DNA of 64,000 nt, taken from assembly GCA_963809485.1 (NCBI GenBank), contig CAWEJX010000009.1, positions 1 to 64,000 of the forward strand. The letters are read 5' to 3'. A program made the position numbers and the translations under genes. Source of the stretch: an uncultured Acidobacteriota bacterium (GTDB taxonomy: Bacteria; Acidobacteriota; UBA6911). Under the pieces are notes generated by a model. It did no database searches, was not told the origin of the DNA, and saw nothing but the letters and a program-made list of their open reading frames with translations. This document shows, one piece after another, positions 13,094-38,640 of this stretch (its first letter is position 1; each line of letters begins with the position of its first letter).

Positions 13094-13490
13094 GTCAGGC
13101 ACCTCCGGCAAAGCCGGAGGCTTGAAAGATTGGAACCGCTCAAAGCGGTTGGAGGAGTTACGCTGGTCTTGAACGCTGACTTACGCGGGCAAAAGCCGAT
13201 GAGGCGCTTCCGATCCCCGCAGGGACCAGCGCTCCGCGCTGCACAGTTTTCTGCGGCGGCACTGTGGCAAACGCCCGGTTTCTCATAACCTCCATCTCCT
13301 TGCCGCACGGCGCTTGCCACAGTGCCGCCGCAGAAAACTCCATCGGAAGCGCCTCATCGGCTTTTGCTCGCCGACCCTCGCCGAACAAATCGGCGTTTGT
13401 CAGCGCTTTTATCAGCGTTTCTCAGCGTTTCAAAATACGAAGCTGTCAAACTCTTTGAGTCCCCCGGCAGAGCCGGGATTTACCAATAGA
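13094..13490 (-). mobile_element. Non-autonomous IS200/IS605-type element (MITE/PATE-like), copy A, 397 bp
   Basis: Left-end hairpin TAAA-TCCCGGC-TCT-GCCGGGGG. Right-end hairpin CAAG-CCTCCGGC-TTT-GCCGGAGG ending in TGAC. Preceded by TAAT. Near-identical to 24065-24461 and 38243-38640. No transposase and no TSD. Confidence 0.8.
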
Positions 13491-14153
13491 ATTATGGCTA
13501 TGGGAAGCCTTTCGTCGAAATAAGGAATTGGATGCTGGTCCTTGGCTATCCGGCTGTTTCACCGAACCCCAAGGAATTGCGAAGCCTTACGGACATGATT
13601 CACTATGACAACTGCGGTTCCAACGATTTCCGAACCGATGAGCAGGTCCTCGCCGATGCCCAAAAAACATGGGAGTGGTGCATGGCCGAACACTAATCCG
13701 CCGCGTCCGCGAACGCACAGGAGGGCACCCTGCGCAACTGCGATGCAAAACTGCGGAGGGTTCGTGCCATATGCAATAGCGAGGATTGCGACGCTCAAAG
13801 GCCGGTGAGCATATCCCCGTCCTGCAGAGCCGAGGTGTGGCCGCACATCGAGACCGGCCGCTGTTAAGACCTCGCACCAGGCGGGCACTTAGATGACCAA
13901 TCTTTCATAGAAGCCCCGGCCATAATCAACCGCGGCCCAGATTGAGTTGTGGATTCGAAGAAGCTTGTTTGCTTTCTGGAATTTCCACATTTGGTTTTAC
14001 TACAGCCAAAATGGGCGAGCATGATATCTTTTAGGTTCGCATGCACGTTATCGGATCCGAGCATGGCGGGGTTGGATGAAGCCAAAAATCGTGGCAGGAT
14101 TTCTCCGGAACTCCTTTCAACAAATTGGCAATCCTTAAAAGCGGAGGTGTGAT

Positions 14154-15813
14154 TTGAAAAGAAAGATATGGCCCGTCTCATTGGTTGTGCTTCTCATCGC
14201 TGTAATTTCGACAGCATATTCTGCCGAAAAATTCAGGGTATTGAATCCGACCCCCCCGAATCGAATGGTCGATCGCGTACCCCTTGCACCGCGGCTCGAT
14301 TCGCTGGAAGGAAAAACAATATTCCTGGTGGATATCGGCTGGGGAGGTGAGAATGCGGCTCCCAGCATTTATGAGGAAATGAAGGCATGGTTTGCCCAGA
14401 ATATGCCGAGTGTCAAAATTGAGGTCAGAAAGATCAAAGGCTTCTACATGCAGGATCAGCCGGAACTCCTGAAAGAAATCTCCGAAAGGGGCAACGCGGC
14501 TATGTTTGGGATAGCCGGTTGAGACAGCTGCACATCGGCCGTGAGCCGAAACTGCAAACAGCTGGAACAGCAATACAGGATTCCCACCGTTGGGGGCGCG
14601 GCATCCAATATCATCAAATATGCCCAGGGGCACGATTTCCAGTATACCAACGGATCGCCCATTCGATACATTTCCTTTCCCTTCCCGGTAGCCGGACAGC
14701 CTCAATCAGTGCACCATAGATATATTTTTGAGAGCAAGGACGTTGTAAGCGGAAAGCCGATGATGCAGGCGTTCGTCGACGCCCTGACCGTTCCCCTGAC
14801 CGACCAGGAGAAATACAAAGGCCCGGCGCCTGAACCAGTCGCGGCGGAATCCCGCTTCCTCGGGCCGGACACTGAGGAGAACCTGCAGCGCCTTTTCAAG
14901 GACCAGGACTGGACAGATTACCTTCCCATTATCCTTCCGACCGAAGAACGCGTGGCAGACATGCTGAAAGGCACCTCGCATAAACCGGACGAAGTCATCA
15001 AGACCCTGGACTGGCCCGGCGGCAAGCGGGAAGTTACGGTAGAAAGAGTGGCGACCTGCGCTGTTATGGCCGGCGCCAAACCGGAACATCTTCCTGTGAT
15101 TCTGGCCCTGGCCAACCACATACCCTTTGGAAACTCCACATCCTCCATGGCCAACATGATCCTGGTCAACGGACCCATACGCGACGAAATAGGGATGAAT
15201 TACGGTCACAACGTAATGGGACCGCATAATCTGGCCAATTCGGTTATCGGCCGCAGTTACACGATTATGTCGAAAACCATCGGCGGTCTGCACAGCAAAA
15301 AAACCACCTGGAGCAGCCTGGGAAGCACCCTGCAATACAACAATGTCTGCATTGCGGAAAACGAGGAGGCATTGCCTGAGGGATGGAAACCTTTTCATGT
15401 CCAGGCGGGATTCAAACCTAATGACAGTGTTTTAACTGTGGCAACCGGATGGTCCTATATTTCCAGCGTAACGGAAGCTAAGACGGGAATACCCGGTAAA
15501 TATGTGGATGGGCGAGTATATGAAGGCACTTACAATGGGATCGGCCACAGTCATTATGGATCCGAGCGTCGCCAGACTTCTAAAGGACACCTATGGTTTT
15601 CAGACCAAAGACCAACTGAGCAAATGGTTTTCGGAAAATGTTGAAAAAACTCAGTACCCTTCAGGACAAAAGGTAAAACCCTTCCAGGAAACCTCAGTAA
15701 ATATAATTGTTACAGGCGGCGGGGGCCAGACAACATGGTTTGTGACGGATTTCATGCTGAGTCGGAATATGGTTCTGTCGGGAGGGAGTACACGCATTGA
15801 CGACTGGCGCTAG
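14154..15813 (+). CDS. Signal-peptide-bearing UGSC-family selenoprotein (U-D-S-C); Sec at TGA 14520-14522; one frameshift near 15480
   Basis: GGAGG RBS and TTG start, Sec-type signal MKRKIWPVSLVVLLIAVISTAYSA. Reads GIAG-TGA-DSCTSAV in frame into the 14541 ORF. SECIS-like hairpin follows. Removing one A near 15480 joins the 15502-15813 ORF. Confidence 0.82.
14523..14564 (+). promoter_or_regulatory. Putative bacterial SECIS element
   Basis: Stem TCGGC/GCCGA (14535-14549) with loop CGTGA, 17 nt after the TGA. A lower stem is possible via TGCA/TGCA or CAGCTG/CAGCTG. Confidence 0.65.
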
Positions 15814-16022
15814 AAAAGGAATCCTGCGATTAACAAGGCGCTTAGCCATTAAGTACCACCCCGACAAAGCCTGAGCTTTAATTTGTAAGCTGCTCAAAGC
15901 GGCTGGCACAGTATTACCGGGGTCGCAATCTGAATCGATACGGATACAGCTATTCGTTTCCCGATTTCGACTGCGACCCCGATTCCGACGCCGATAGCCA
16001 CAGTGACTAAAGCCTTGATAAT

Positions 16023-16225
16023 TCTATTGGTAAACCCACGGCTCTGCCGGGGGACTCATAGAGTTTGACGGCTCCGTATTTTGAAACGCTGAGATACGCT
16101 GACAAAAGCGCTGACAAACACCGATTTGTTCGGCGAGGGTCGGCGAGCAAGACCAGCGTAACTCCTCCAACCGCTTTGGGCGGTTCCAATCTTTCAAGCC
16201 TCCGGCTTTGCCGGAGGTGCCTGAC
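16023..16225 (+). mobile_element. Same IS200/IS605-type element, copy B, internally deleted (203 bp)
   Basis: Same left and right ends, after TAAT (16019-16022) and ending in TGAC. Most of the cruciform cargo is missing, with a GAGCAA|GACCAGC junction. Confidence 0.8.
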
Positions 16226-16419
16226 TCTTGGATAGGATGCCGTTGAAACACATCGCTCAACAAAACGGTATTATCCTGGCATGGCAGCGAAAGCGCAGTG
16301 TCCGGTTTCTTTTTTAATGGGGATCTTCAAAAATCCGGGAGAGAATTTTCCGGGGCATCCGGCACCATGAGAGGAATCGACTGCCCCGCGATATCCCGCC
16401 GGGAAAATATAGCAGGAAG

Positions 16420-18279
16420 GTGGAATCAGCCATGGCACATGGGAATCGCGGTTGGAAGACCGCCCTAATCTGGACGGGTCGAACCCTCAAGCTCATTCAG
16501 AACGTAGTGCTCGGAGTGCTGTTCTGGGCCGTCGTCACTGCCGTGATCTTCGCCGCGTTGATAAACCGCGGCCCGCGCGTGCCCGATGGGGCGGCGCTGG
16601 TGTTGAATCCCGACGGTGCGGTGGTGGAGCAACTCGGCGGCGATCCTTTGGACCGGCTTCTGAACCAGGCGGAGTCCGAGGTTCTGATTAAGGATCTGCT
16701 CGACGCGATCCGGGAAGCCAAAAACGACCGACGCATTCAGGCGCTGGTGCTGGATCTCGACAAACTGGGCAGCGTTGGGATGAGCAAGCTCCTCGATCTG
16801 AAGTCGGCGCTCACGGACTTTAAAAAAAGCGGCAAAAAAATCATTGCAGCCGGCGATGAATTCGACGAGCAGGGATATTTTTTGGCCGCGCAGGCGGACG
16901 AGGTCTACCTGCATCCCATGGGCGCAATATTGCTCACAGGCTTTAGCCGATATGCCACGTTCTACAAGGAAGGGCTCGACAAACTCGGGCTGGAAGTTCA
17001 CATTTTCCGGGTCGGAGAATACAAGTCGGCGACGGAGCCGTTCATGAGGGACAGCATGTCCGAGGAAGCCAAACAGGCGAACCTCGCCTACCTGGAGGAC
17101 CTATGGGGGATCTGGCTCAAGGAAGCTGCCGAGGGACGCAAACTGAAGGTCGGGGAATTGCGGGACTATATCGATCGCTTCAAGGACCGCCTGGCCGAAA
17201 ACCAGGGATGGGCCGCACAGATGGCTGTAAAAGCCAAACTGGTGGATAAGCTGGCCAACCGAGACGAAATCCGCGAACGGCTGATCCGACTGGTTGGAAA
17301 AGATGAAAAAACCCACGACTTCCGCCAAATCAGGTTCGCGGACTACCTGAAAGCAATCGGCGGTGATCGGTACGGGAAAAAGGCCAAAGGGAACCTGGTC
17401 GGCGTGGTGGTGGCCCGGGGAGAAATCTTTGATGGAACTCAGCCTCCGGGAACAATCGGCGGCGACTCCACTGCCGCCCTGATCCGCAAAGCGCGCATGG
17501 ACGACAGCATCAAAGCCGTAGTGCTGCGGGTGGACTCCCCCGGCGGCAGCGCCTTTGCCTCCGAGGTGATACGGCGGGAATGCGCGATCACGCGCAAGGC
17601 CGGGAAGCCCGTCATAGTTTCCATGGGCAGCGTAGCTGCGTCGGGCGGATATTGGATATCCACAGCTGCCGACCAGATCTGGGCCAGCCCCGCCACCATC
17701 ACGGGTTCCATCGGTATTTACGGATTGTTTCCCACATACGATAGGCCTCTAGCCAAATACCTTGGCATGCATGTGGACGGAGTCGGCACCACTCCGCTGG
17801 CCGGAGCCCTGCGCATGGATCGGCCCTTTGATCCAAGGGTGGGCGAGATCTATCAGCAAATTATCAATCGAGGCTATGAAGATTTTCTCTATCGGGTGTC
17901 GGAAGCCCGAAAGATGGATCGGGACGCGGTGGACAAAATTGCCCGGGGGCGCGTCTGGAGCGGCGAGGACGCTCTCGGGATAGGCCTGATCGACAAGCTC
18001 GGAGGCCTGCCCGATGCTATAGCGGCGGCGGCCGCTTTCTCCAAGCTCGGGGCAGGTTATGGCGTACAGTACCTCGAACCGAAAATGACGTGGAAGGAAA
18101 AGCTCATGGCGGACCTGTGGGCCCGTGCACTGCAGTTCCGGGGATCCGACAGTTCCCTGATCGCCGACACCATGGGATTCATGCCCCCCGCCCGGATTTT
18201 GGCAAAGCAGGTGTCCCTCTTCGCGCGCTTCAATGATCCTAAAGGAGTCTATGCGTATTGCCCCTTCGCCGTTGAATGA
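16420..18279 (+). CDS. sppA: Signal peptide peptidase SppA, 67-kDa type (protease IV)
   Basis: N-terminal TM, VGEYKSATEPF, VLRVDSPGGSA, SMGSVAASGGYWI, TGSIGI, GRVWSG. Confidence 0.95.
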   Translation: MESAMAHGNRGWKTALIWTGRTLKLIQNVVLGVLFWAVVTAVIFAALINRGPRVPDGAALVLNPDGAVVEQLGGDPLDRLLNQAESEVLIKDLLDAIREAKNDRRIQALVLDLDKLGSVGMSKLLDLKSALTDFKKSGKKIIAAGDEFDEQGYFLAAQADEVYLHPMGAILLTGFSRYATFYKEGLDKLGLEVHIFRVGEYKSATEPFMRDSMSEEAKQANLAYLEDLWGIWLKEAAEGRKLKVGELRDYIDRFKDRLAENQGWAAQMAVKAKLVDKLANRDEIRERLIRLVGKDEKTHDFRQIRFADYLKAIGGDRYGKKAKGNLVGVVVARGEIFDGTQPPGTIGGDSTAALIRKARMDDSIKAVVLRVDSPGGSAFASEVIRRECAITRKAGKPVIVSMGSVAASGGYWISTAADQIWASPATITGSIGIYGLFPTYDRPLAKYLGMHVDGVGTTPLAGALRMDRPFDPRVGEIYQQIINRGYEDFLYRVSEARKMDRDAVDKIARGRVWSGEDALGIGLIDKLGGLPDAIAAAAAFSKLGAGYGVQYLEPKMTWKEKLMADLWARALQFRGSDSSLIADTMGFMPPARILAKQVSLFARFNDPKGVYAYCPFAVE

Positions 18280-18650
18280 ATATGTTGCACAGCGGCGCTG
18301 GCCCCCGATTGCAGTTGAAAGCTCTGTGGTGCAGGCATTACGTGGCAGCCGGGAAAGACCGGCCATCCAATCCCAAGGTCGTGAACTTGAGGGGTCACGA
18401 TCGGCTTCAGATAGTCGCAACTGCCCCACTTCCCGAGAAAGGGCGGCTTCGGCTCTCGGCAAGCGCCTCGTGCTTTCGTTCGAATAGGTCGCGCTGCCGT
18501 CGCTTTGATTATCTCCAGATAATCGGAGGTTGTTTACGAGTGGGAATCCTTGGGTATTTGAACTTGTTATAGCCCAGCATCATGCATCCGGTAGCCGCGT
18601 GCAATTTGCTAATACCCGAGCGATGCCGATTAGTCAATGCGCCCGAGAGG

Positions 18651-19529
18651 CTACTCTCTCCATTCAGACAGCACTTCGCCCAGGCCCAGCCCGAAGGGCA
18701 TTTTGCCCTCGATAACGCTCAATTTTGCATCAAGCACCTTAATCGGGCCCAGGAATGTCAGCGGATCATGCGGGCCGTCGAAGAACTGAACCGTCGCAGT
18801 TCCCTTTGAATCTTTCGGTCCCGCCGGGGCGACCAAAGGAGCGCTGGCTTGAGGCATATTGCTGCAGCCGACGCATACGATCTGGTTAAAAGAAAGAGAC
18901 GTTGGCGAGGCGTTGGGGACGCGTCGGACCAGGAGAGTGGGGCCCATGTTCGGCCATTTTACTTCAGGGGAGGATTTGGATACCTTGTATTCGATCTTCA
19001 TCAGAGGAACGCTCCCCTGGTCTCTCATTTTGTTAGCAATGACCATCCAGCCTGTCGCGGTCTTGGTCCAGGTTATGTCCGCCATCTTCTTGGGCCATCC
19101 ATAGATTTCCCGCCCGGCGATAAGCCCCATATCGCTGTCGATATATTCGACCAGAGTCGTGTTGCCGACTTTGTCCTTCCATTTGACAGGGGCGTTGATC
19201 GCGATCTCATGGACATTGTATCCCTGTTCTTCCACGTCCTGAGTCCAGGCCACTATCATGACAAACAAATCCTCGTCGCCGGCCTGTTCCAGAGGCTGCA
19301 TAATGGCCCGTTTGAATGCCCCCTTTGGCGCCTGGCATAAAATCTGAATAGTGTAAACGTCACAGAAATGGTGCGGCAGCGGCGGATAGACCGGTGAAAA
19401 CACCGGAGAGGGGATGAAATCCTTCTTCGCCGGTTTTGCGCCTTTTTCCTGTGCAACCCCCATCAGCACGGCGGCCGCAAAAAATGCACCTATACAAGCA
19501 ACAGCCATGAATACGGTGCTTCGCTTCAT
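18651..19529 (-). CDS. Acetoacetate decarboxylase-like family protein with N-terminal signal peptide
   Basis: GREIYGWPKK catalytic-Lys motif. Start MKRSTVFMAVACIGAFFAAAVLMGVAQ with a GGAGG-like RBS. Confidence 0.75.
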   Translation of the reverse strand: MKRSTVFMAVACIGAFFAAAVLMGVAQEKGAKPAKKDFIPSPVFSPVYPPLPHHFCDVYTIQILCQAPKGAFKRAIMQPLEQAGDEDLFVMIVAWTQDVEEQGYNVHEIAINAPVKWKDKVGNTTLVEYIDSDMGLIAGREIYGWPKKMADITWTKTATGWMVIANKMRDQGSVPLMKIEYKVSKSSPEVKWPNMGPTLLVRRVPNASPTSLSFNQIVCVGCSNMPQASAPLVAPAGPKDSKGTATVQFFDGPHDPLTFLGPIKVLDAKLSVIEGKMPFGLGLGEVLSEWRE

Positions 19530-19903
19530 CACTCCGTCCTCCGTTCCTTTCGCAGGTTCAGGCAATTGTTCCAAGGATTGCTTAAAGTTGATCATTCCCG
19601 ATGATTCTAATCCCGCCTCGGAAGCCACAGAAAAGAATCTTGCTGTTATTTCAATGGCGCCTTCCGTGTGAATGCTTTCAATCTGACTGCAGCACCATAT
19701 TACGGTAGTATGCCGGTGCTGAATATGGCTTTGGGACACAGGGCTGCCTGATATCCAAAACAAAGGCCCGGAAGACCGAAAATATAACGCCCCTATTGAG
19801 TGGCATGGAGGGCTTCGTGGCTTGCCTGCAAAGCCTCGAATTTCCTGCTTGCTCCACAGCAGCTTCACATATAAACTGGTGCGCTTTCACAGGAGGGTAC
19901 AAG

Positions 19904-20984
19904 GTGCATAAAATTGCGGTTATGCCAGGCGACGGGACTGGACCAGAGGTTACAGCCGAGGCTGTAAAAGTTCTAAAGGTTGCAGCAGGCAAGTTCGGTT
20001 TCAAGGTGGATCTGACCGAATTCGATTTCGGCGGCGAGCGATACAAAAGAACGGGAGAAACGCTGCCGGACAGCGCCATCGACGAACTGCGCAAATTCGA
20101 CGCGATCCTGCTGGGAGCCATCGGGCACCCCGATGTCGCTCCGGGCATCCTGGAAAAAGGGATCCTGCTCAAGGCTCGCTTCGCGCTCGATCAGTACATC
20201 AATCTCCGGCCGGTCAAGCTGTTTCCGGGCGTGGAAACACCGCTGAAAGACAAAGGGCCGGAGGACATCGATTTTGTCGTCGTACGCGAAAATTCAGGGG
20301 ATCTGTACACCGGCACGGGCGGTTTCACGATGAAGGGAACGCCGCAGAAGTGGCCGTACAGTCGGCCGTTTACAGCCGATTCCAGGTCGACCGCTGCCTG
20401 CGATACGCCTTTAATTATACCCGCAAGTACGGGAGAAAGGCGCGCGGCAAGGGAAAGAAGAACACTCTTGGCTTTGGTCGGCAAAACCAACGTGTTGACC
20501 TATGTGTACGATCTCTGGGAACGGGCATTTCACGAGATGGGTCAGAAGGAATTTCCGGATATCGAACGCGAATACTACCATGTCGACGCGACCTGCATGT
20601 GGTTCGTCAAGAATCCTGAATGGTTCGACGTGATCGTGACCGGCAACATGTTCGGCGACATCATCACCGATCTGGGCGCCATGATCCAGGGCGGCATGGG
20701 CATCGCTGCCGGCGGCAATCTGAATCCCGAAGGCGTGAGCATGTTCGAGCCTATCGGCGGAAGCGCTCCGAAATACACCGGCCAGGGAGTCATTAATCCT
20801 CTGGCCGCGATTTGCTCCATGCAGATGATGCTGGAAACGCTGGGCGAGCAGAAGGCTGCCGATGCCATCGAACAAGCCGTCGATGTATGTGACGAGCAAG
20901 AAGCTTAAATCGCTCGCGGCCGGACGTATGGGCTACTCCACGTCGCAGGTCGGCGACCTGGTAGCCGAGCAGGTCGTGAAATAG
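19904..20984 (+). CDS. leuB: 3-isopropylmalate dehydrogenase (three apparent indels near 20345, 20465, 20880)
   Basis: [59 protein letters not shown] and GTG start. Corrected frame ends [20 protein letters not shown]. Confidence 0.88.
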
Positions 20985-21008
20985 CAAAAGCAAGTTTCGG
21001 CGCAAACC

Positions 21009-21075
21009 AACGCCACGGATGACACGGATTTTATAGCGATATATAATCTGTGTACTCTGTGGCGTTTTTATTTTT
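21009..21075 (+). terminator. Hairpin plus U-tract after leuB (related to the repeat at ~50213-50268)
   Basis: AACGCCACGGA...TCTGTGGCGTT followed by TTTATTTTT. Confidence 0.55.
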
Positions 21076-21206
21076 GCTGAAGGAACTCCATGAATAATGG
21101 TTCCGAATCAGCCGTGCTCCTCAATGCAGCAAGCTTAGCCGATGTCAGGCGCGTGCAGACCTTGAATTGGCAAGAACAAAACGTATACGCTTGGGAGGCG
21201 GATGTT

Positions 21207-23123: not shown

Positions 23124-23136
23124 GAGGATTGTCCCG

Positions 23137-23937: not shown

Positions 23938-24064
23938 TCGGGTTCCCTTTCGATGCCCAAAGCCTGATTGGTCCTTCAGCCCGTGACGCCCGAAGACCCT
24001 ATTGAAGATAAATTCCACTGCAAACGAGCGCGTATTAGGAACGATCTTTTGCCTCTGCCCCGCA

Positions 24065-24461
24065 GTCAGGCACCTCCGGCAAAGCCGGAGGCTTGAAAGA
24101 TTGGAACCGCTCAAAGCGGTTGGCGGAGTTACGCTGGTCTTGAACGCTGACTTACGCGGGCAAAAGCCGATGAGGCGCTTCCGATCCCCGCAGGGACCAG
24201 CGCTCCGCGATGGACAGTTTTCTGCGGCGGCGCTGTGGCAAACGCCCTGTTTCTCATAACCTCCATCTCCTTGCCGCACGGCGCTTGCCACAGTGCCGCC
24301 GCAGAAAACTCCATCGGAAGCGCCTCATCGGCTTTTGCTCGCCGACCCTCGCCGAACAAATCGGCGTTTGTCAGCGCTTTTGTCAGCGTATCTCAGCGTT
24401 TCAAAACACGGAGCTGTCAAACTCCATGCGTCCCCCGGCAGAGCCGGGGTTTACCGATAGA
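24065..24461 (-). mobile_element. IS200/IS605-type non-autonomous element, copy C, 397 bp
   Basis: Same ends and cruciform as copy A. Preceded on its strand by TATAAT. Confidence 0.8.
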
Positions 24462-24615
24462 ATTATATATTCATAAGAGAAAAACCGTGCTTTCCGGCCT
24501 GAATCCTCCACGCATCACTTTTCCTGGGCTGGAGGCGAAAAGCTCCACCTTTTGTAACCGCCATGAATCCCATGCAAACACAGGCATTTTATTGAGGCAA
24601 AGCAATGGCAACCGG

Positions 24616-29258: not shown

Positions 29259-29556
29259 GTTTCTGTCGCGAAACTGGTTTGTGCCGCGTAGCGGCACTAT
29301 GATTTTAGCCCGGCCTTTCAAGGCCGGGAACCATGGTACAGCGAGCAGCGCGTCGCGTAGCGACGCCTGAGATTCAGCCGTCGCTACGCGACGGAAAACT
29401 TAACTCCTTTCGATCCAGGCCTTAAAAGGCCTGGCTAAATTCAGCTGGCCGCTACGCGGCCTGACTCCAATTATCGGCTTCTATGTAATATCAAATATCC
29501 TATTGACGGTTGAAAAATTTGGCTTTTTCACAAAACCCGAGTTTCGCGACAGAAAC
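29259..29556. mobile_element. MITE with 17-bp terminal inverted repeats enclosing a nested REP-like palindrome
   Basis: GTTTCTGTCGCGAAACT (29259-29275) and its reverse complement (29540-29556), flanked on both sides by TAATTA. Internal hairpins CCCGGCCTTTCAAGGCCGGG and CGTCGCGTAGCGACG recur in inverted copies. Confidence 0.7.
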
Positions 29557-30008
29557 TAATTAGATGTTACTTGCCCATTTTAAGCCGACCGCACTTCACA
29601 TCGAATTTTGCCTCCCGACTTTCCGTCTGCAAGGTCATCGATTCTTCATACGAAATACCCATCAAAAAAGTTCCGGGAGGATACCAGACCGGGCACCCAA
29701 CAGGTATCAGTGAAAGAGCTTCTTCAGCGTCTGTCCGCGTTCTATGATCCCGGGACTGCCGAACTCTGGCAATCTCCCGGCGGAGTTGGGCGATTACGGA
29801 CAAATCCAGCTTTCCCCATTCGAGGGCTTAACGAAAAAGGCCCAAAGTGAACCCAAAGCCCGTACCTCTTGCATTCCCTACACGGCATGTTACCCTTCAA
29901 TCAGTTGCCGGGGATATTCACCGGTGCCCCCGGCAAACGGAACCAATTCTTTGCTCCCCTTGATTTACGGGGACACTGGTGGCTGTCCCCATCAAAAAAG
30001 GAAGTTCG

Positions 30009-30557
30009 ATGAAGAAGCTATTGCTGATTTTTGGGGTTGTGGTCCTGAGCATGTCCTCTGCCCTGGCAGGCGAGTCGTACACGGCAACCGCAATAGGAAA
30101 GGTTGACGGCATCGAAAAGAGGGTCAAAGCCACGATCACCATAGATCGATTGTCGACGCAATCCGAGAAAGATGAGGCACGCGCGGCGCTCAATGCCGGC
30201 GGCACAACGAGCCTTGCCGCCAGGCTAAACTTGATGCCCGTCGTGGGCAAATTGATCTTCGAGGATGGGCGGGCTTTCGACCTCAAGCTGACCAACCAGA
30301 TTGGGACTTTGGGTGGTGGACGCTTCTTGACTGTAATTACGTCCAAGCCGATTTCGTTCCTCGGCGCCGACAAGCCCGGCTCGAAACTGACGGAGGGCTT
30401 CGGTGTGGGAGTGATCGATCTCAGCCTCCAGGCGGACGGACATGGCAAAGGCACTGCGGCTCCCGCCGCAAAGGTCAAGATTGGGGATACGGGCGGCTTT
30501 CAGGTGGAGGACTACGGATCCAAGACGATCTGGCTCGAAGATGTTAAGAAAATATAG
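30009..30557 (+). CDS. Exported hypothetical protein
   Basis: AAGGA RBS and signal peptide MKKLLLIFGVVVLSMSSALA. Confidence 0.75.
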   Translation: MKKLLLIFGVVVLSMSSALAGESYTATAIGKVDGIEKRVKATITIDRLSTQSEKDEARAALNAGGTTSLAARLNLMPVVGKLIFEDGRAFDLKLTNQIGTLGGGRFLTVITSKPISFLGADKPGSKLTEGFGVGVIDLSLQADGHGKGTAAPAAKVKIGDTGGFQVEDYGSKTIWLEDVKKI

Positions 30558-30642
30558 AAAAAATGGGGCTATATCCCCACTGTCCACCTTGATCCCAAAT
30601 ACAGTGGACAGTAAAAAAATCCGATCCTGAAAACCGAAAGGA

Positions 30643-30897
30643 TCAAATTGGCGGGATATGCACATCCTTCATGGCAGAGCGAGCCCCAACAATAATGACA
30701 GCAACAGCGATTCCCACTCCAATTCCGACTTTTACTGCGGTGCTCATCCCTTTTGGCTTTACCTTGCGGATATCAAAATACGTCAGTTGCATCGGGATGG
30801 CTGCAGCGCCACCTGCCAGGGCAAACCCGTCCCCCGATATATTCGTAACATGGCCGCTGAATTTCCGCCCGTTCTTCGGCGGATTGCGTTGAAACAA
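30643..30897 (-). pseudogene. Fragment of a membrane-anchored hypothetical protein (5' part missing)
   Basis: KNGRKFSGHVTNISGDGF...VGIGVGIAVAVIIVG C-terminal TM; no good start. Confidence 0.4.
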
Positions 30898-31038
30898 TAC
30901 GAGGCTTGAAGCGCAGATGCCCGAAAAAGGAGCAGCTTATATCCCCTTGCCAGTTGCTCCTGTAATCCGATATTCGAAATTCGGGATCCGGCGATATCGG
31001 CCGCAAACCTCGAATCTCGAATCTCCAGTCGGAAAGCA

Positions 31039-31680
31039 TCAGTCGATGGTGCCGGGACCGTCATAGGCGGCAAACACCTTTTCGGCGCCATAGACTCCGT
31101 TGAAATAGGGTGCAAGCATCAATGCGCTGAACATCATCGGCTTGCGGAGAACCTTAATTTCAAGGGGGCAATGCTGAAGTCCCCTGGGGATATAAAGGAT
31201 AGTAGCCTTGTTGATGACGTGTTTCTCCAGCTCTTCTCCAAGGAACAACTCGATTTCGCCGTCGAAGGAGCCAATCAGATCCGGCAGCGAGGCGCCCAGA
31301 AAGATCAGGTATTCGTCAACGTCGTGTTTGTGAAAAGTCCTTTCCAGCCGCATAGGTCTCACAAACAATTGCCAGCCGATATTGATTCCGGCTCCCGGAA
31401 GCTCGCTCTGGCCCCGGAAGTATGCCTGGGGGCCGTCGACCGCCGGCAGATTAGATTTTTCCTTAAATCTTGTGCAGAAGAGTTTGTCATACTTGGTGCC
31501 TGTGGTCCCCGTCGGCCAGGGCATCTCGGGAAACGGGCTTTTGGCGGCCGGCTTCTTGCCTTCCTGAGCCAGAGCGGGAGCACCCAATTGGGCTAAAGCG
31601 CTGGCCACCGCTATCCCTGCCGTACCTGCCGTCACATCCTGGAAAAACGCCCTTCGAGTTTTACTGTCCTTGCTGCTCAT
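31039..31680 (-). CDS. Tat-exported cupin-like protein
   Basis: TRRAFF signal with an ALA cleavage site. Cupin motifs HKHDVDEYLIFLG and YIPRGLQHCPL. Confidence 0.8.
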   Translation of the reverse strand: MSSKDSKTRRAFFQDVTAGTAGIAVASALAQLGAPALAQEGKKPAAKSPFPEMPWPTGTTGTKYDKLFCTRFKEKSNLPAVDGPQAYFRGQSELPGAGINIGWQLFVRPMRLERTFHKHDVDEYLIFLGASLPDLIGSFDGEIELFLGEELEKHVINKATILYIPRGLQHCPLEIKVLRKPMMFSALMLAPYFNGVYGAEKVFAAYDGPGTID

Positions 31681-31918
31681 CGGTACTCTCCTTTCGAAAA
31701 GAACACGTCTGCAAACTCCATGGATCGGGTTCGGGATTGAGCGTCAAAGTACAAGCATGCAGCCGCAGGCAGGCTCCCATGGCCAGACAGTATCCAGCCG
31801 GCATGGAGCCCGCCCCGGCGGATCCGGTAAAATAACACATCCCGCCTCTATGTCTGCCGATGAACGCAATGCGTTTCGGCAGTGCACGTCACTTCACGGC
31901 AGGCTTTACTGATGCCAC

Positions 31919-32464
31919 CTAGCCGACCCTGGCATCGATGAAGACGATAGGCTTGCCAACTCGTTTAACGACCAATGGGCAGTGAGGCGTGTTTTTGGGA
32001 ATATAGAAATAGCAGGAATAGTTGACCTTTCTGACCTTGTCGCCCAGAAACATTTCAGCATCCGCATCGAATTCGAGAAAATTTTTGCCATCGCCCCCGA
32101 TGAGGAATATCCACTGGTCATGAGTGTGTGAATGAGTATCGCCGCCCAATGTTTCAGGCCTTTCAATATAGGCAAACCCAATCGCCAGGCTGGATCCCGG
32201 AACGTCTTTGGCACCCCACGCCGTAATCATGGGGGCCGTAATCGAGGCGTGCATTGATTTCCACGGCTTAAATTCAACGACGTTGGGTTCCCTCAGGACA
32301 TTTGCAAGTTTGCTCATGTCAAAGGATTCGTAGGTTGGCTTCTGAGGACCCATCATTGCTGAGGCATTCAATGCGGATAAGACACTGGCAAAAGCCACTC
32401 CGGCGGCTCCAGCCGATACATCCTGAAAGAAATTCCGTCGGTCCGTTCGCTTCTTATAGGTCAT
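31919..32464 (-). CDS. Tat-exported cupin-like protein (tandem paralog)
   Basis: DRRNFF signal, HSHTHDQWIFLIG, YIPKNTPHCPL. Confidence 0.8.
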   Translation of the reverse strand: MTYKKRTDRRNFFQDVSAGAAGVAFASVLSALNASAMMGPQKPTYESFDMSKLANVLREPNVVEFKPWKSMHASITAPMITAWGAKDVPGSSLAIGFAYIERPETLGGDTHSHTHDQWIFLIGGDGKNFLEFDADAEMFLGDKVRKVNYSCYFYIPKNTPHCPLVVKRVGKPIVFIDARVG

Positions 32465-32726
32465 CTGTTTTCTCCCCTGAAGAATTGTTGCCCGATTCAT
32501 GAAAGATGCTGCGCAGAATCATTGGGCCAGTTTCAGGCACCCATGCTCCTGAGATAACTTCTTTCAATGGTTTTGATTGCCTGGTCACAGAAGGCCTATT
32601 ATAGGGGGTGGGTGCGGATGACGAAAGCTAAATAAGCAAAAAAATGGGGCCGTGTCTCCACGGTCCACGTCGGACGTCCCCAATGCGAAGTGCATGAGAA
32701 CACCGATGATTCAGCGGCGGCTGCCT

Positions 32727-33725
32727 CTATTTTTCGCGAATATCGGGCTGCTGGGAAGCGCCGGATGCAGGTTTTGCCTCCGGTGCCGGATCCGCGCTTC
32801 CCTCGGTCTCTTTCTCCAAGACCTCGGGCTTCGCGATCTTTTGCATGGTTTCCACACTAAACAGTTCGAACTCCGAATATAGATGCGTATTACGGAGAAC
32901 TTTGCCTTCCCATTGGAGGGTAACAATCGCCTGCTTCGGCAACCAGAATTTTTGTGCCGACCGATTCAGCCGGACCTCGTCGAACTCTATCTCCGTCCTT
33001 TGTTTTTCCAGCCGGATGAGGGGGAGAGGCTCCAGAAGGTCTGAGACAATGCGCACAATTTGATTCGTCTCCGCGTCAATCCATGCCATCCCCTGTTTGA
33101 ATATCGTGCCTGTGTTTTGCCGGAGCCTATAGGTTCCAAAAAGCCGGGATTGCGCGGGAATTTGCGCATAACCTACTACAAGGGTATCGCGGCTTCCCAG
33201 TTTCTGACGCCCGAGCAGCCGGAAGGAACTTCCCTTTTGATGGGCCGGGTGGAATATCAATGGAGCCGAAATGAATCCTGAGGTCAGCATGTAGCCTTCC
33301 TTCGAGCCCGGCGGCGAAATCTCGCGTCCCTTGGCATCCGATCGATATTCGATGAAGGATGGCCCCCATTTTTCGGTCGTGGCTATGCCCAGATAGAGAC
33401 ACTTGAATCTCAGGCTCGAACGGACCTCCCCTTCATGATTTAACTTCTGCAGAAGAACATTCTCCACGACAGAAATATTAAGAAGGTCGGCGAAAAGCCT
33501 GGAGACATTCTTCCCTCCGGCAGTGAGGATTTGACTGAGCGGCGCCTGGTCGTCGGACGGTTCAAAGCCCGGCAGATTCTTCGGTGCCTGGTGAATGTAA
33601 TCGATGGATTGTTCGTCCTGGTCTTCAGCCCATGGATTTGTGTTGGCGACCTCAGGGATGACCGGAATCGCCGGAAGCAAGATAAATAACGCACAGCAGA
33701 GAATGAGTCCGTATCCATATCTCAT
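32727..33725 (-). CDS. Exported hypothetical protein (beta-sheet-rich, LolA-like fold possible)
   Basis: Signal peptide; QGMAWIDAETNQIVRI and FWLPKQAIV pattern. Confidence 0.65.
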   Translation of the reverse strand: MRYGYGLILCCALFILLPAIPVIPEVANTNPWAEDQDEQSIDYIHQAPKNLPGFEPSDDQAPLSQILTAGGKNVSRLFADLLNISVVENVLLQKLNHEGEVRSSLRFKCLYLGIATTEKWGPSFIEYRSDAKGREISPPGSKEGYMLTSGFISAPLIFHPAHQKGSSFRLLGRQKLGSRDTLVVGYAQIPAQSRLFGTYRLRQNTGTIFKQGMAWIDAETNQIVRIVSDLLEPLPLIRLEKQRTEIEFDEVRLNRSAQKFWLPKQAIVTLQWEGKVLRNTHLYSEFELFSVETMQKIAKPEVLEKETEGSADPAPEAKPASGASQQPDIREK

Positions 33726-34063
33726 GATGGACGCCTTTTATCTCAAAAGTATCGAGAGGACAGGCCCCCGAAGCCCCGCTTCATCCGGTTATAACAACCT
33801 AACCTTTGAATGCTGCCGGAATACCTGGAAAAATCCTGGTTTAATACTGTGCAGCTTCAGCACCAGGGCGCACGCTTAACCTTATGTCGCCAAAAGCGAA
33901 GAGTTTTAAAGATCTCCAGGTCAGGTACAGATTCCGGATTTTCCTGGGAACGTGATTTGTATATCGGATCCAAAGTTTATTCCCAACCGGAGCCGCAATC
34001 AACATTGGCAATGTTTATGAGTAATTCAACCACCAGCTGCGAAGGCGGCAATCACCGATGTAT

Positions 34064-35020
34064 TTATTTGCGGAGCTGCTTGAGCACCTCTTTTGCGCGG
34101 GGGGTCATCGGGCTCTCCGGATTTTCTTTCAGGTAGGTTTCAAGTTCCAGAATGGCCTTGGAAACCTCTCCAGCATTGCTATAAAGATCGGCGAGCAGAA
34201 GGCGGACCTTGGGCGAGGCGTTTTTGCGCTCCAGGGCCAGCCTGCCCATGGCGATGCCTTTCTCCCATTGGCCCATCTTGCCGTAGCACATGCCCAGTTC
34301 GTAGGGCCACTGCCAGCTTTCCGGATCCTCCCGGAAGGGTTTGAGCAGCAGACGCTCGGCCTCTTCGTAATGCTGCCGGAAGATCAAAAGCTCAGAGAGC
34401 GGGTAATAGGGGTCAAAGAATCCTGGATTGATTTCGATGGCCTTGCGCAGTGAAGATTCCCCGTCCGAGGCATTGCCCGTTTTGAGATGGGCCATTCCGA
34501 GCATGTAATAGGCTTCGTAGTAGTTTGGAAAAGCATCGATGGCTTTCTGGAAATGGCGGAGGCTTCCCCTGGGATCATTCTTGCTTCCCATCAGATCCAG
34601 GCCGGTTTTGAACTCCCTGCGGGCCGCCTCCGGGATGGCCAATAAGCGTGCCGAAATCACTCCACCGGGCGGCTCATCTTTGGCCGGCATTCTCTTCATG
34701 CGCACCCAGATTGTCGGAGCTTCCATGGATAAGCGGCTGCGGTCGACCGATTCCTCGTACGGTTGATATCCATTCTTGGTTGCGCGCAACAGAAACAGGT
34801 TCTGTTCGACACGCCGGAACTCCACACTGCCGGTGTTGTTTGTAAAAGCCATTTGGGCGATCGTATCCGGGAAGATCACAATCTCAACCCGAGCTTGTTC
34901 CAGCTCCGATCCTGTGTCCTGGTCCGAAATGCGAACTATCAGGTCTTGGGCACACGCAATGCCGGAAAGGCCCAGCAATCCAAACCAGAAAATTGCGGCA
35001 CGCAGGATTTTTGTGGGCAT
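34064..35020 (-). CDS. Exported carboxypeptidase-regulatory-like domain plus TPR-repeat protein
   Basis: Signal peptide, N-terminal beta domain, ISARLLAIPEAARREF linker, several TPR helices. Confidence 0.8.
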   Translation of the reverse strand: MPTKILRAAIFWFGLLGLSGIACAQDLIVRISDQDTGSELEQARVEIVIFPDTIAQMAFTNNTGSVEFRRVEQNLFLLRATKNGYQPYEESVDRSRLSMEAPTIWVRMKRMPAKDEPPGGVISARLLAIPEAARREFKTGLDLMGSKNDPRGSLRHFQKAIDAFPNYYEAYYMLGMAHLKTGNASDGESSLRKAIEINPGFFDPYYPLSELLIFRQHYEEAERLLLKPFREDPESWQWPYELGMCYGKMGQWEKGIAMGRLALERKNASPKVRLLLADLYSNAGEVSKAILELETYLKENPESPMTPRAKEVLKQLRK

Positions 35021-35322
35021 CGGGCCGGTTCGCAATATGCGGCATCCATCAAAAACAGCTCCCATATGCTTCACCCGTCCACACAGTGGATTTGAACTAT
35101 ATTATTTGCCCTGATCCCGTTTTTCGTCAAGGCAGCCCGGAGAGCATCTGTAAAAGGGCCGGATCGCGACAGAAAAAAAGGTGGTTTCATGCGCGATAGG
35201 TGTCTTTAAAGCCTTTTGAACAGCAGAATGTCGAATGATGAAGATCCATACGGCAGTGCCTTTTTGCGGCGTTCCTCGGCGACTGTCCGCGCATGTCAGC
35301 GTAAATGGATCCATGAAGCCTG

Positions 35323-36726
35323 CTACGTCACGATTTCCAATTCCCTCCGTCTAGTCAACTCCCGTTCATTCTCCAGCACCTTCCGGCGATCCAGAGGATA
35401 AAGGAAAAGAGAAATTCCTTTGCCCACCGCAAGGAATGCCGGGATGACCGAGAACATCAGTAGTATTCCCCACAGAGATTTTTCCGGCTGCGGCTGATTG
35501 GCCACAAAGCCGAACCAACTCAGCAGCCGTCCGCCCAGGAGGCCGGCAATCATGGTTCCGGTTTTGAGGGCAAACAAGGAAGCGGAATGGATGAGTCCGG
35601 TGGATCGCCGCCCAAACAGGACCTGGCCGTAATCTGCCACATCCCCGTACATCGACCACACCAGCGCCGAGGTCGGGCCTATCATGAACGAGCCCACCGC
35701 ATTGATGGCCAGCATTAAGCCGTACATGTGGACGGGAATGAAGTAGAACGAAAACCAGCAGACGGCTGTTCCCATCGTCAGAAATACCGACAGGTGCTTC
35801 TTGTCGAGAAACCGTATCAGGAATCCGACACACAATACTCCGAGCATCATCATGAACCGGCCCAGACTCAGGAAAAGCGATGTACGGTCCATCCCCAGGA
35901 AAATCGCCTCGTTGCCTGCCCTGACCACGTACTTAAAAAAATGCAAGGTAACCGAATCGCGCATGGCGATGAACGTAGTGGAAAAAATCGAAGCAAAGAA
36001 CAGTATTATCCATGGACGATTTTGTATCAATTCCTTGAGTTCTTCTTTAATATTTTGCCGCTGCCCCGCCGGAGGCTGGACGCGCTCCTTTGTCGTAAGG
36101 AACGTAATCCAGAAGAGTATTACGGACGCCAGCGCAAACAAACCCATGGTGTACTGAAATCCCCGCAGCTCGTTCCCGGCGCCCAGCTTTTCCACCAGGG
36201 CGCGAACAAACATCGATATCAGCAGCCCTCCTCCGTAGGCGCCCACGAAGCGGAAATGCGAAGCGATGGTCCGGGCATAGGACGACGGACTCAAGACTCC
36301 CATCAGGGACGAATAGGGGACATTGATGGCGGTATACGCCATCATCATCATCGTGTAGGTGAAGTAGGCGTAAACGATCCTGGAGGTGCCCTCCAGGTCG
36401 GGATTGGCAAAAATCAGGTAGCCGAATACCCCATATGGGACTGCCATCCAGAGCAGGTACGGCCGGTATTTGCCCCACCTCGTTTTCGTCCGGTCGCAAA
36501 TGATGCCCATGATGGGATCATTGATCGCGTCCCAAAGGCGCGTAAGGAAGAACATTGTTCCTGCAACGGCTGCGTCGATTCCGAAAACGTCCGTGTAGTA
36601 GTAGAGCAGGAAGATATTGAAGGTTTGGAAAAAGAAGTTTGAGGCCGTGTCGCCGAGTCCGAATCCTACGTTTTCAAGGAACGACAGCCTCCGGTGCGGG
36701 CCGGATTTACCGGGATTTTCGGGCAT
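35323..36726 (-). CDS. MFS glycoside-pentoside-hexuronide (GPH):cation symporter
   Basis: GFGLGDTASNFF, RLWDAINDPIMG...DRTKTRWGKYRPYLL, NVPYSSL; about 12 TM segments. Confidence 0.92.
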   Translation of the reverse strand: MPENPGKSGPHRRLSFLENVGFGLGDTASNFFFQTFNIFLLYYYTDVFGIDAAVAGTMFFLTRLWDAINDPIMGIICDRTKTRWGKYRPYLLWMAVPYGVFGYLIFANPDLEGTSRIVYAYFTYTMMMMAYTAINVPYSSLMGVLSPSSYARTIASHFRFVGAYGGGLLISMFVRALVEKLGAGNELRGFQYTMGLFALASVILFWITFLTTKERVQPPAGQRQNIKEELKELIQNRPWIILFFASIFSTTFIAMRDSVTLHFFKYVVRAGNEAIFLGMDRTSLFLSLGRFMMMLGVLCVGFLIRFLDKKHLSVFLTMGTAVCWFSFYFIPVHMYGLMLAINAVGSFMIGPTSALVWSMYGDVADYGQVLFGRRSTGLIHSASLFALKTGTMIAGLLGGRLLSWFGFVANQPQPEKSLWGILLMFSVIPAFLAVGKGISLFLYPLDRRKVLENERELTRRRELEIVT

Positions 36727-36780
36727 GCAGGCACTCCGCCATTCAGGCTCGAGACAACAAGCGGATATTGAAAGAGCGCG

Positions 36781-36809
36781 ATCCTACTATCGCATGAACA
36801 GAGCGTCAA
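36781..36809 (-). promoter_or_regulatory. Putative sigma70 promoter for the GPH transporter
   Basis: TTGACG-N17-TAGGAT on the minus strand. Confidence 0.5.
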
Positions 36810-36862
36810 CGGATGCAAGGGTCCACCAGAGAACCCGGAGCTTTTTGTCAACCGGCAGCTGC

Positions 36863-38197
36863 CTACAATTGCTTTAGCAATTGCTGGGCCGCGATATGAA
36901 TGGGGTCCCACGCCGGGCTGAAAGGAGGCGCATAGGCAAAATCCAGATAGGCGATCTCATCAAGCCGCATACCGGTCCAGAGGGCGCAGGAAAGGGTATT
37001 GATCCTTTCTACGGCGCCTCTGGCGCCGACAGCCTGGGCCCCCAGGAGCATCCCTGTCGCCCGGTCGGCCACCATCTTGATGCCCAGCCTTTTTTCCCCG
37101 GGAAACGAACGGGCGATCGCGTCTCCCCAGATAATCGTGCTCACGGGGTGGTATCCGCATTCCTTCGCTTCGCGTTCATCGATGCCGACGGCAGCCACTC
37201 CGAGGTCGAATACCTTAAAGGACTGCGCACCCACGACTCCCGGGAATATCATGGATCCGCCCCCTACATTGATCCCTGCCACGCGTCCCTGCTTATTGGC
37301 GACATCTCCCAGGGGGATGTGCGTCCACTGCCTGCTCACGCGATGGTACACCTCGCAGCAGTCCCCCACCGCGTATATGTTTTCATCCGAAGTTTTCTGG
37401 GAAAAATTAACCAGGATTGCCCCTGATTTGCCCATCCGCAGGCCGGCGTCGACTGCCAGTTTGGTATTCGGTCTGATACCGATGGCGATGAGAACCAGAT
37501 CCGCCTCCATGAAACCGTTGTTTGTATTCAGGCGAAGACGGTAGTCCTTAGCTGCCTCAATCGAAGACATGCCCGTATTGGGAGAGAAGCCCACCTCGTG
37601 GCGGACCATCTCTTCATGAATTATTTTTGAAAACTCGGGGTCCCATCTCCTCGCGGGGCGCCCAGCAAGATCCATGACCTCCGTGGCGACATTCAGGCCT
37701 CTCAATGCCTCGCACATCTCGAGCCCGATGAAACCGGCCCCGACGATCAGCGCCTTCCTGCATTGCTTTTCCCTTAAATAGTTCTTGATAGCAATGGCAT
37801 CGGGAAGCGTTTTGAGCACAAAAACACCTTCCATTCCCACGCCGGGAACAATCGGGACAAATGCGGTCGTTCCCGTTCCCAGAACAAGGCTGTCGTAAGG
37901 TACCATGGCTCCATCGGACAGCCGCACGGCTTGTTTCTCCCTGTCGACCTCTTCGGCCCGGACGTCCAGCCGCACGTCCACCCCTGTTTCCCTGAATTTT
38001 TCAGGCGTCCTTGCGATAAGATTTTTGGAATCTTTTATTACATCACCGATGTAATAGGGCATGGGTCAAGCCGCGGTGGATACATTTTTCCCCTGCTCTA
38101 TCATTATTACCGAAAGGGCCGGGTTGCGCCGTTTCGCTTCAGCCGCAACCGAAGCCCCGCCGGCGCCGCCTCCGATGATGACAAGATTCCCGCTCAT
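36863..38197 (-). CDS. CoA-disulfide reductase / NADH oxidase family flavoprotein with selenocysteine at the redox-active site (TGA 38068-38066)
   Basis: MSGNLVIIGGGAGG...EQGKNVSTAA-TGA-PMPYYIG corresponds to the SxxxC(G)LPYY active-site motif. Also GAGFIGLE, YAVGDC, YAPPFS. GGAGG RBS and a SECIS-like hairpin. Confidence 0.9.
38036..38056 (-). promoter_or_regulatory. Putative SECIS hairpin
   Basis: Perfect 9-bp stem TATTACATC/GATGTAATA with a GGT loop 18 nt after the TGA. Confidence 0.78.
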
Positions 38198-38242
38198 GGC
38201 AGCCTCCTGGTTTCCGGATCCTCCAGCAATTCCATAATAACA

Positions 38243-38640
38243 GTCAAGCCCCTCCGGCAAAGCCGGAGGCTTGAAAGATTGGAACCGCTCAAAGCGGTTG
38301 GCGGAGTTACGCTGGTCTTGAACGCTGACTTACGCGGGCAAAAGCCGATGAGGCGCTTCCGATCCCCGCAGGGGCCAGCGCTCCGCGCTGGACAGTTTTC
38401 TGCGGCGGCACTGTGGCAAACGCCCGGTTTCTCGTAACCTCCATCTCCTTGCCGCACGGCGCTTGCCACAGTGCCGCCGCAGAAAACTCCATCGGAAGCG
38501 CCTCATCGGCTTTTGCTCGCCGACCCTCGCCGAACGAATCGGCGTTTGTCAGCCCTTTTGTCAGCGTATCTCAGCGTTTCAAAATACGGAGCTGTCAAAC
38601 TCAATAAGTCCCCCGGCAGAGCCGGGCGTTTACCAATAAA
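38243..38640 (-). mobile_element. IS200/IS605-type non-autonomous element, copy D, 398 bp
   Basis: Same ends and cruciform. Preceded by TGAT, one mismatch to TAAT. The right end is 45 bp from the CoADR start. Confidence 0.8.

Follow-up and report, generated by a model that had tools for sequence, protein, structure and literature searches.

High-copy repeats in an uncultured Acidobacteriota genome are very probably transposase-less derivatives of an IS200-group insertion sequence, oriented by replication

The window analysed here, i.e. positions 1–64 000 of contig CAWEJX010000009.1 (C9) from the assembly GCA_963809485.1 of an uncultured Acidobacteriota bacterium (genome G000; 6.04 Mb in 21 contigs, 95.7 % complete, 7.3 % contamination), harbours four copies (A to D) of a hairpin-bearing repeat without a transposase gene. 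These repeats very probably belong to a high-copy family of palindrome-associated transposable elements (PATEs), i.e. non-autonomous derivatives of an insertion sequence (IS) of the IS200 group that encodes only tnpA, with an orientation set by replication. An earlier interpretation made without database searches, called the sequence-only reading below, had described a transposase-less IS200/IS605-type element that appears to target −10 promoter boxes and would serve the next gene as a large structured 5′ leader. Its observation of the repeats and its mechanistic classification are correct, the class being borne out by the ends, the target, the fit of the guides and a cognate IS in a related genome.

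All four copies share their ends, and the repeats in the window exceed chance by far. On the top strand, the left end (LE) shows TAAT (TGAT in copy D) in the flank, then T(CT/AC/CC)ATTGGTAAA and the hairpin CCCCGGC-TCT-GCCGGGG, with GGTAAA directly 5′ of the hairpin in every copy. The right end (RE) consists of CAAG, the hairpin CCTCCGGC-TTT-GCCGGAGG and T(G/A)CCTGAC, after which the element ends and a T follows. Both hairpins lie on the same strand and have pyrimidine loops, the termini TCTATTGG... and ...CCTGAC have no inverted-repeat relation to each other, and no flanking target duplication was seen at the four copies. Positions, subterminal hairpins and boundaries after TAAT (TGAT in copy D) and TGAC are those described in the sequence-only reading. 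When folded as single-stranded DNA, copy C reached z = −14.5 compared with shuffled sequences, its central palindrome forming a very long hairpin.

The family extends far beyond the window. A blastn comparison of copy C with the whole of G000 gave 260 matches containing the LE and 259 containing the RE, and 70-nt end probes gave 280 matches each, from which 242 left and 264 right ends were anchored (the remaining 38 and 16 lacked an anchor and were excluded). These ends form 202 LE+RE pairs, 40 solo left ends and 62 solo right ends, i.e. about 305 sites, and the element-like sequence masked in G000 amounts to 84 373 bases. Paired copies measure 167–400 bp, with peaks at 398 (52 copies), 237 (17) and 223 bp (16), the short forms lacking the central palindrome. 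The 88 long copies yielded two subfamilies, one of 60 copies (mean identity 95.8 %, best pair 99.0 %) and one of 26 copies (93.6 %), which includes the window copies. Internal open reading frames (ORFs) do not exceed 113 aa, lie within the palindrome and have no counterpart in the parental IS, so that no transposase is encoded. One terminal-only relic of 44 nt was seen and is attributed to deletion between the two similar hairpins. As for the palindrome itself, 111 nt of copy C (element positions 152–262, window ~24200–24310) match the majority subfamily better on the opposite strand (91–93 %), from which the imperfect palindrome appears to stand in opposite orientation in the two subfamilies.

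A 30-nt left-end pattern, allowing up to three mismatches, occurred 197 times in G000, 34 times in the congener G006 and one to six times in eight other genomes of the same family, but not once in 86 genomes representing 21 further families of this class, and reversing the pattern as a control gave no match in any genome. In relatives, compensated variants of the LE stem preserve the hairpin, i.e. CAGC...GCTG in G002 and G136, and CCTCCGGC...GCCGGAGG in G130. Within the element at G006:C81 (locus L071, ~1700–2000), there is a block of ~330 bp with several unrelated hairpins, while at G007:C580 (locus L040, ~900–1000 and 640–830) a sequence that is found again close by interrupts the right hairpin past ...GGCTTTGCC. 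In contigs from soil and wetland metagenomes that cover window positions 24021–24488, the summed word depth was ~590–6,700 on the element (four bins, three runs) and ~10–20 on its flanks; therefore, relatives of the element are common in such samples. The genes flanking copy C are present in the metagenomes solely through relatives diverged by ~10 %.

The boundaries are sharply defined at both ends. In flank logos, conservation begins abruptly at T-(A 78 %/G 17 %)-A-T and stops at TGAC and the following T (79 %), with no signal beyond. Among the 242 anchored left ends, the flanking tetranucleotide was TAAT in 166, TGAT in 38 and CAAT in 12, together 216, and TGAC was found at 224 of the 264 anchored right ends. 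The base 3′ of the right end was T in 209/264 cases, compared with 30 % after random intergenic TAAT sites.

Empty sites, whose comparison the sequence-only reading had proposed, agree with these boundaries. The site occupied at G006:C81 is uninterrupted in G000 at C7 (~275.07 kb; ...TCGTAAT/TTGTCTG..., the slash marking the junction), and three G000 copies interrupt repeats of a second family that has intact paralogues of equal length across the site. At all four empty sites, i.e. one orthologous and three paralogous, the element lies directly 3′ of TAAT with zero bases duplicated or lost. The junction is ambiguous by one base, since the element starts with T and is followed by T; the guide rule (see below) settles this. 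The boundaries are also those of the autonomous IS in G133. Comparison of 20 occupied loci of G006 with G000 gave one base-precise empty site, one messy site, one terminal-only relic and at least four shared insertions, the rest being rearranged or at contig ends; the differences in presence and absence between the two genomes show past mobility. At the locus of copy C, G006 lacks the element at a divergence too high for base precision, and for the loci of copies A and B the alignment with G006 is limited to the neighbouring genes. Metagenome contigs on copy C break at 24064, the base just past the right end; no empty allele was found in the contigs of four metagenome runs, and no contig skips the whole element. 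Two candidate nested insertions (C4:77 kb and C8:172 kb), considered as further empty sites, were self-matches of the palindromic hairpin.

The tetranucleotides at the foot of the hairpins fit the cleavage sites. According to passages of PMC5934647 and PMC3201880, the IS608 site TTAC pairs with the guide AAAG through A+16:T−3 and A+17:T−4, and its right end has the guide GAAT for TCAA. In these passages, the pairing of the first site base with the second guide base and of the second site base with the first guide base is stated, while that between the two fourth bases was derived by us from four site/guide pairs. Applied to the present ends, the rule, which also accounts for both ends of IS608, predicts TAxT from TAAA and TGxC from CAAG, and TAAT and TGAC were observed. 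The sequence-only reading had used the rule in the same way, correctly so and with the same mapping as described in the relevant part of PMC5934647. The variant TGAT corresponds to a G·T wobble against the guide T, and A or G occupies this position in 218 of the 227 copies with guide T.

A cognate autonomous IS is present in G133, a genome from another genus of the same family, as three identical 629-bp copies at different sites. Its layout is TAAT or TGAT in the flank, the same LE, an intact tnpA encoding 143 aa, and the same RE ending in TGAC and followed by T. The TnpA contains the motifs HVHML and WARGYYVSTVG and matches the solved transposases 2EC2 (IS200-type, 1e-21), 2A6M (ISHp608, 3e-13) and 2XM3 (ISDra2, 2e-10); a PF01797 match was found in its close homologue in G007. 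In this congener of G000, an IS with PATE-homologous ends has an in-frame TGA ahead of the catalytic tyrosine and a disrupted right hairpin, and a second congener, G002, holds a partial, decayed copy. The parental IS thus consists of tnpA alone, without tnpB. The autonomous partner with the same ends expected by the sequence-only reading therefore exists in G133, and in decayed form in G007 and G002, but none was found in G000.

In the mechanism that we propose, a Y1 HUH transposase acting in trans would bind both subterminal hairpins on the top strand, and the four bases 5′ of each hairpin foot would read the cleavage site, i.e. TAAA that in the left flank and CAAG that inside the right end. 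The top strand would then leave as a single-stranded circle, an intermediate suggested by the anatomy of the ends, and the circle would be pasted 3′ of a TAAT on the single-stranded lagging-strand template without any duplication. TGAT would also be accepted through the wobble pair, and a following T would be favoured. The surviving copies are found almost exclusively between genes and near gene ends, probably as a result of selection, and the large central palindrome would represent cargo that is often lost, giving rise to forms of 200–290 bp. Insertion on the single-stranded lagging-strand template would imply that the orientation of a copy records the direction of the replication fork, and not that of the genes.

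This is what the orientation of the copies shows, 173/199 of which agree with their seven nearest neighbours. Whole contigs are nearly uniform (C20 45 − and 3 +; C6 15 + and 0 −; C1 17 − and 1 +), while C7 carries 12 − and 2 + copies up to 440 kb and 12 + and 2 − copies from 483 kb onwards. The sole dnaA match in G000 is located at C7:454563–455039, between these blocks of opposite strand. With − copies to the left of the origin and + copies to its right, the active top strand lies on the lagging-strand template, the insertion polarity that PMC5027513 describes as shown for IS608 and ISDra2 and deduced for further members of the family. GC skew is weak (~0.00–0.03), its sign matching 153/202 copies, and predicted genes are evenly divided with respect to the inferred replication direction (2765 co-directional, 2777 opposed). 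Copy orientation is therefore set by the direction of replication, not by genes, and the PATEs are the clearest replichore marker in the G000 assembly. On contig C8, the orientation is mixed at 0–190 kb, mostly − at 233–485 kb and mostly + from 491 kb. The first switch (~190–233 kb) could be the terminus, while the second (~485–511 kb) would imply that the contig is inverted in part, misjoined or a contaminant.

Several points weigh against this interpretation. Twenty-six of the 199 copies violate the orientation rule. An intact cognate tnpA is not found in the G000 assembly, where four PF01797 (Y1_Tnp) matches occur, none of them with element ends within 3 kb; since the assembly consists of 21 contigs and is 95.7 % complete, such a copy may be missing from it. 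The nearest candidate in G000, at C6:298.5 kb, has the TAAT target and the TAAA guide in common with the PATEs, but its hairpin stems differ and its tnpA contains a TAG. Guide position 1 and target position 2 do not covary significantly, G being found opposite guide C in 4/13 copies and opposite guide T in 38/227. Among 22 sequencing runs, none was recorded as RNA, none came from the strain, and shares were at most 0.14. Finally, genes were predicted by our own caller based on ORFs and hexamer scores after masking (5630 calls), which is crude and gives approximate starts.

With these gene calls, the surroundings of the copies were compared with those of 5697 intergenic TAAT sites on both strands, and in a second version with those on the replication-compatible strand. 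Copies avoid genes, since after in-silico excision an open frame extended over 100 codons or more to either side in 5/202 copies, compared with 680/2000 random TAAT sites, and the five spanning frames looked by eye like wrong-frame or adjacent-gene read-through rather than a real interrupted gene. Of all TAAT sites in G000, 68.5 % lie within predicted genes. The neighbour classes also differ from the null (chi-square p = 7e-5). Copies in tandem with sense orientation of the element were observed 42 times (null 28 %, expected 57.2) and divergent neighbours 38 times (null 28 %, expected 55.8), while tandem antisense copies numbered 76 (null 27 %, expected 54.7) and convergent neighbours 46 (null 17 %, expected 34.3). 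Only the gene on the RE side matters, i.e. opposed classes are about 1.35-fold up and co-oriented classes are at about 0.7, whatever lies on the left, and the LE side is unbiased (88/202 vs 46.6 %; p = 0.40). The median distance from the RE to the 3′ end of an opposed gene is 49 bp, compared with 124 bp in the null (p = 3e-10), while that to a co-oriented start facing the RE is not shortened (131 vs 105 bp).

As a refinement of the proposed mechanism, it is tempting to speculate that head-on transcription, by stalling forks, attracts insertions, and that the bias reflects targeting rather than selection. The enrichment of opposed genes on the RE side, the unbiased LE side, the proximity of the RE to 3′ ends of convergent genes, and a depletion of co-oriented genes that is the same (~0.7) within 200 bp and beyond all point in this direction, as does the attraction of IS608 to stalled forks and highly transcribed rrn operons described in part of PMC5027513. 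However, the counts, which rest on crude gene calls, are also explained if purifying selection removes sense insertions that fall between a promoter and its gene. Moreover, the 26 copies that break the orientation rule are equally biased, with 18/26 facing an opposed gene; targeting of stalled forks accounts for this only if these copies and their neighbours were inverted as a unit, so that their bias fits either selection or such a joint inversion. The counts therefore fit selection on one reading and stalled-fork targeting on the other, and we consider targeting possible but rather unlikely. That the bias is a fossil record of conflicts between replication and transcription, with copies piling up ahead of the 3′ ends of head-on genes, is somewhat more doubtful still. 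If it were true, the positions of the PATEs would at once give the best replichore marker and chart the sites of conflict, given that G000 has no gene-strand bias and almost no GC skew. Either way, the surplus of copies that face an opposed gene at its 3′ end offers a small lead on how single-strand transposition meets transcription.

The same comparison decides on the promoter part of the sequence-only reading, according to which insertion at sigma-70 −10 boxes, just behind promoters, turns the element into a structured 5′ leader, i.e. a mobile regulatory cassette or promoter parasite. At first sight, the window speaks for it: all four copies are co-oriented with the next gene, with a start codon 45–194 bp downstream, TAAT is the tail of TATAAT, and copies A to C follow NATAAT. 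In addition, the LE keeps a TTGACA that is conserved in the parental IS, and the 80/202 copies upstream of a co-oriented gene could affect that gene. Genome-wide, however, there is no −10 signal 5′ of TAAT, the two preceding positions being T in 23 % and A in 33 % (A directly before TAAT in 33 % of copies vs 37 % of the null), and TATAAT precedes 7/166 TAAT-flanked copies compared with 6.7 % of 5356 random intergenic TAAT sites (p = 0.27), so that the claimed targeting of −10 boxes is not supported.

The claim that the element lands upstream of co-oriented genes fares no better. The downstream gene is co-oriented in those 80/202 copies vs 56.8 % of the null (p = 1e-6; 34/88 long and 46/114 short forms), and in 61/167 when high-scoring neighbours within 600 bp are considered. 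Co-oriented starts 45–200 bp downstream occur in 40/202 copies vs 22.8 % of the null (p = 0.36), and those within 200 bp are depleted (55/202 vs 38.9 %; p = 7e-4). Copies lie nearer to gene 3′ ends than null sites do, and replication explains their orientation, genes being unbiased in this respect. A consensus scan of copy C and its flanks detected no promoter-like site and two terminator-like sites, both outside the element. The 4/4 co-orientation in the window is a local coincidence and unrepresentative. The comparison of orientation and distance with random TAAT sites, which the sequence-only reading had itself put forward as a check, thus came out against the promoter idea, and on these genome-wide counts the interpretation as a promoter parasite is almost certainly wrong. 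The TAAT target may resemble a −10 box, but this resemblance is no sign of a promoter parasite, and repeats of this kind are best masked prior to any calling of intergenic RNA structures or leaders.

Hardly more credible, and if anything slightly less so, is the possibility that the repeats are repetitive extragenic palindromic (REP) or REPIN sequences kept by a domesticated transposase of the RAYT type. The element is intergenic, hairpin-bearing and high-copy, and G000 does encode an intact Y1 protein of 150 aa (C15:225.6 kb), whose gene stands between arrays of its own hairpin repeats, as is typical of RAYTs. Yet the repeats of these arrays are of another family, whose 143-bp tandem unit carries three hairpins unlike those of the PATEs, and no PATE end lies within 3 kb of the gene. 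Furthermore, PATEs are 200–400 bp long with distinct ends, unlike REPs of 20–40 bp or inverted doublets, and their ends are homologous to a multi-copy IS with its own tnpA, whose three identical copies in G133 reflect the behaviour of a mobile IS rather than of a single-copy RAYT. The locus itself (G000:C15:225627–225971; L032, 1100–2400), with its Y1_Tnp gene in the tandem array and inverted copies on the other side, appears from its organization to be a REP/RAYT-type system distinct from the PATEs.

We give next to no credence to a guide RNA (similar to an omega RNA) or other small RNA for a TnpB/IscB-type nuclease within the element, since, strongly structured as it is, and although right ends of IS200/IS605 elements often encode omega RNAs (stated in part of PMC8612924), the parental IS has tnpA only, none of 34 candidates in G000 scored for the TnpB zinc-ribbon family PF07282 (PF01385 and IscB lay outside this search), and Rfam gave no match at the gathering score in the whole window. 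With E ≤ 1, Rfam returned sub-threshold hairpin look-alikes on copy C (isrG, which scored 26 bits where the cut-off is 100, and three precursors of miRNAs), taken as chance matches.

The coordinates of the four window copies and of the landmarks of copy C are given in Table 1, together with the next gene downstream, for which the identities and co-orientation named in the sequence-only reading were confirmed. Copy B is the sole + copy within the window and an exception to the − majority on contig C9.

Table 1. PATE copies in the window and landmarks of copy C. Distances are to the co-oriented gene downstream
Feature	Position	Strand	Description	Downstream gene (distance)
PATE copy A	13094-13490	-	Full length, 397 bp; subfamily 2 (26 copies); left flank CATAAT at 13491-13496 (- strand reading)	DUF3795 (146 bp)
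PATE copy B	16023-16225	+	203-bp form without central palindrome; internal deletion of 195 alignment columns; left flank GATAAT	Peptidase_S49, SppA-like (194 bp)
PATE copy C	24065-24461	-	Full length, 397 bp; left flank TATAAT	PAP2 (46 bp)
PATE copy D	38243-38640	-	Full length, 398 bp; left flank GGTGAT, i.e. target TGAT	Pyridine-nucleotide disulphide oxidoreductase (45 bp)
Copy C target (left cleavage tetranucleotide) TAAT	24462-24465	-	Belongs to the flank, outside the element	
Copy C left guide tetranucleotide TAAA	24450-24453	-	Abuts the foot of the LE hairpin on its 5′ side	
Copy C LE subterminal hairpin CCCCGGC-TCT-GCCGGGG	24433-24449	-		
Copy C right guide tetranucleotide CAAG	24092-24095	-		
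Copy C RE subterminal hairpin CCTCCGGC-TTT-GCCGGAGG	24073-24091	-		
Copy C RE terminus TGCCTGAC	24065-24072	-	Final four bases TGAC are the right cleavage site, inside the element	

Further observations concern the surroundings of the copies. The oxidoreductase gene downstream of copy D (36863–38197, −) has an in-frame TGA at codon 44 within the motif AAUPMPYY, which is consistent with a selenocysteine enzyme, as proposed in the sequence-only reading. The second repeat family mentioned above is ~320 bp long and has ~60–70 copies; in the window, it is represented at 60012–60328 (+) and by a partial copy at 35152–35242, with a reference copy at G000:C8:143750–144200. It has the inverted repeat GAACCGCAGAA...TTCTGCGGTTC and short tandem units similar to GACATTCGATATTCG, and PATEs are inserted in it at three different TAAT positions. 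Its strand is uniform within a replichore (15 + and 1 − on C20, a label opposite to that of the PATEs), so that it may be another element transposing as a single strand. In addition, an IS200-like element is ~99 % identical between G000:C6:298400–299100 (L052) and G006:C43 (L053), at different sites in the two species. Both copies follow TAAT and have the guide TAAA with the stem CGCCGCC-TCT-GGCGGCG; tnpA carries a TAT to TAG change in L052 and a 2-bp deletion near its 3′ end in L053, and the right-end regions differ, while both hold CAAG...TGAC followed by T.

Taken together, the family is a clean natural case of the guide/cleavage code of IS608 working at both ends with tetranucleotides other than those of IS608, and the variation between A and G opposite the guide T is what base pairing leads one to expect. 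Its ~200–300 copies flag the direction of replication despite the weak GC skew and are therefore useful for ordering contigs and locating origin and terminus. A literature search whose scope did not extend to ISfinder or supplementary tables turned up no publication about this element or about an IS200-group PATE with TAAT as its target.

Among characterized systems, ISDra2 has the target TTGAT. The PATEs described here differ from IS608 and ISDra2 in that their parental IS lacks tnpB and the G000 copies lack any transposase. They share with both, as far as the cited sections describe them, hairpins on one strand at both ends, left cleavage in the flank and right cleavage inside the element, the geometry of the 4-base guides, the lack of a target duplication and lagging-strand polarity, and the cognate TnpA aligns with the solved structures. 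Compared with IS608 as described in parts of PMC3201880 and PMC5934647, the target is TAAT instead of TTAC, and the spacers are shorter, with 12 nt separating the cleavage site from the LE hairpin and 8 nt following the RE hairpin, instead of 19 and 10.

REP/REPIN-RAYT systems resemble the family in being intergenic, hairpin-bearing, high-copy, dependent on a Y1 HUH protein and enriched near gene 3′ ends; they differ from it in that PATEs have distinct left and right ends, a tetranucleotide target, a length of 200–400 bp and ends matching a multi-copy IS. The closest parallel is found in the PATEs of Haloquadratum walsbyi, which, in the portion of PMC3119063 consulted, are likewise too short for a transposase, have near-terminal palindromes without terminal inverted repeats or target duplications, share their ends with IS200/IS605-type transposons, are reduced by core deletions to terminal-only relics of ~50 bp, and persist with the cognate tnpA broken or absent. 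All features of the present family that were compared, including its 44-nt relic and its persistence in G000 with no intact cognate transposase in the assembly, conform to this definition of a PATE. The insertions within the elements of G007 and G006 also recall the small mobile repeats that, according to the same source, attack the palindromes of Haloquadratum PATEs. The present family differs from these in its bacterial host, its tnpA-only parent of the IS200 group, its sequence and its TAAT target, and it represents a single family of ~200–300 copies with a long central palindrome as cargo.

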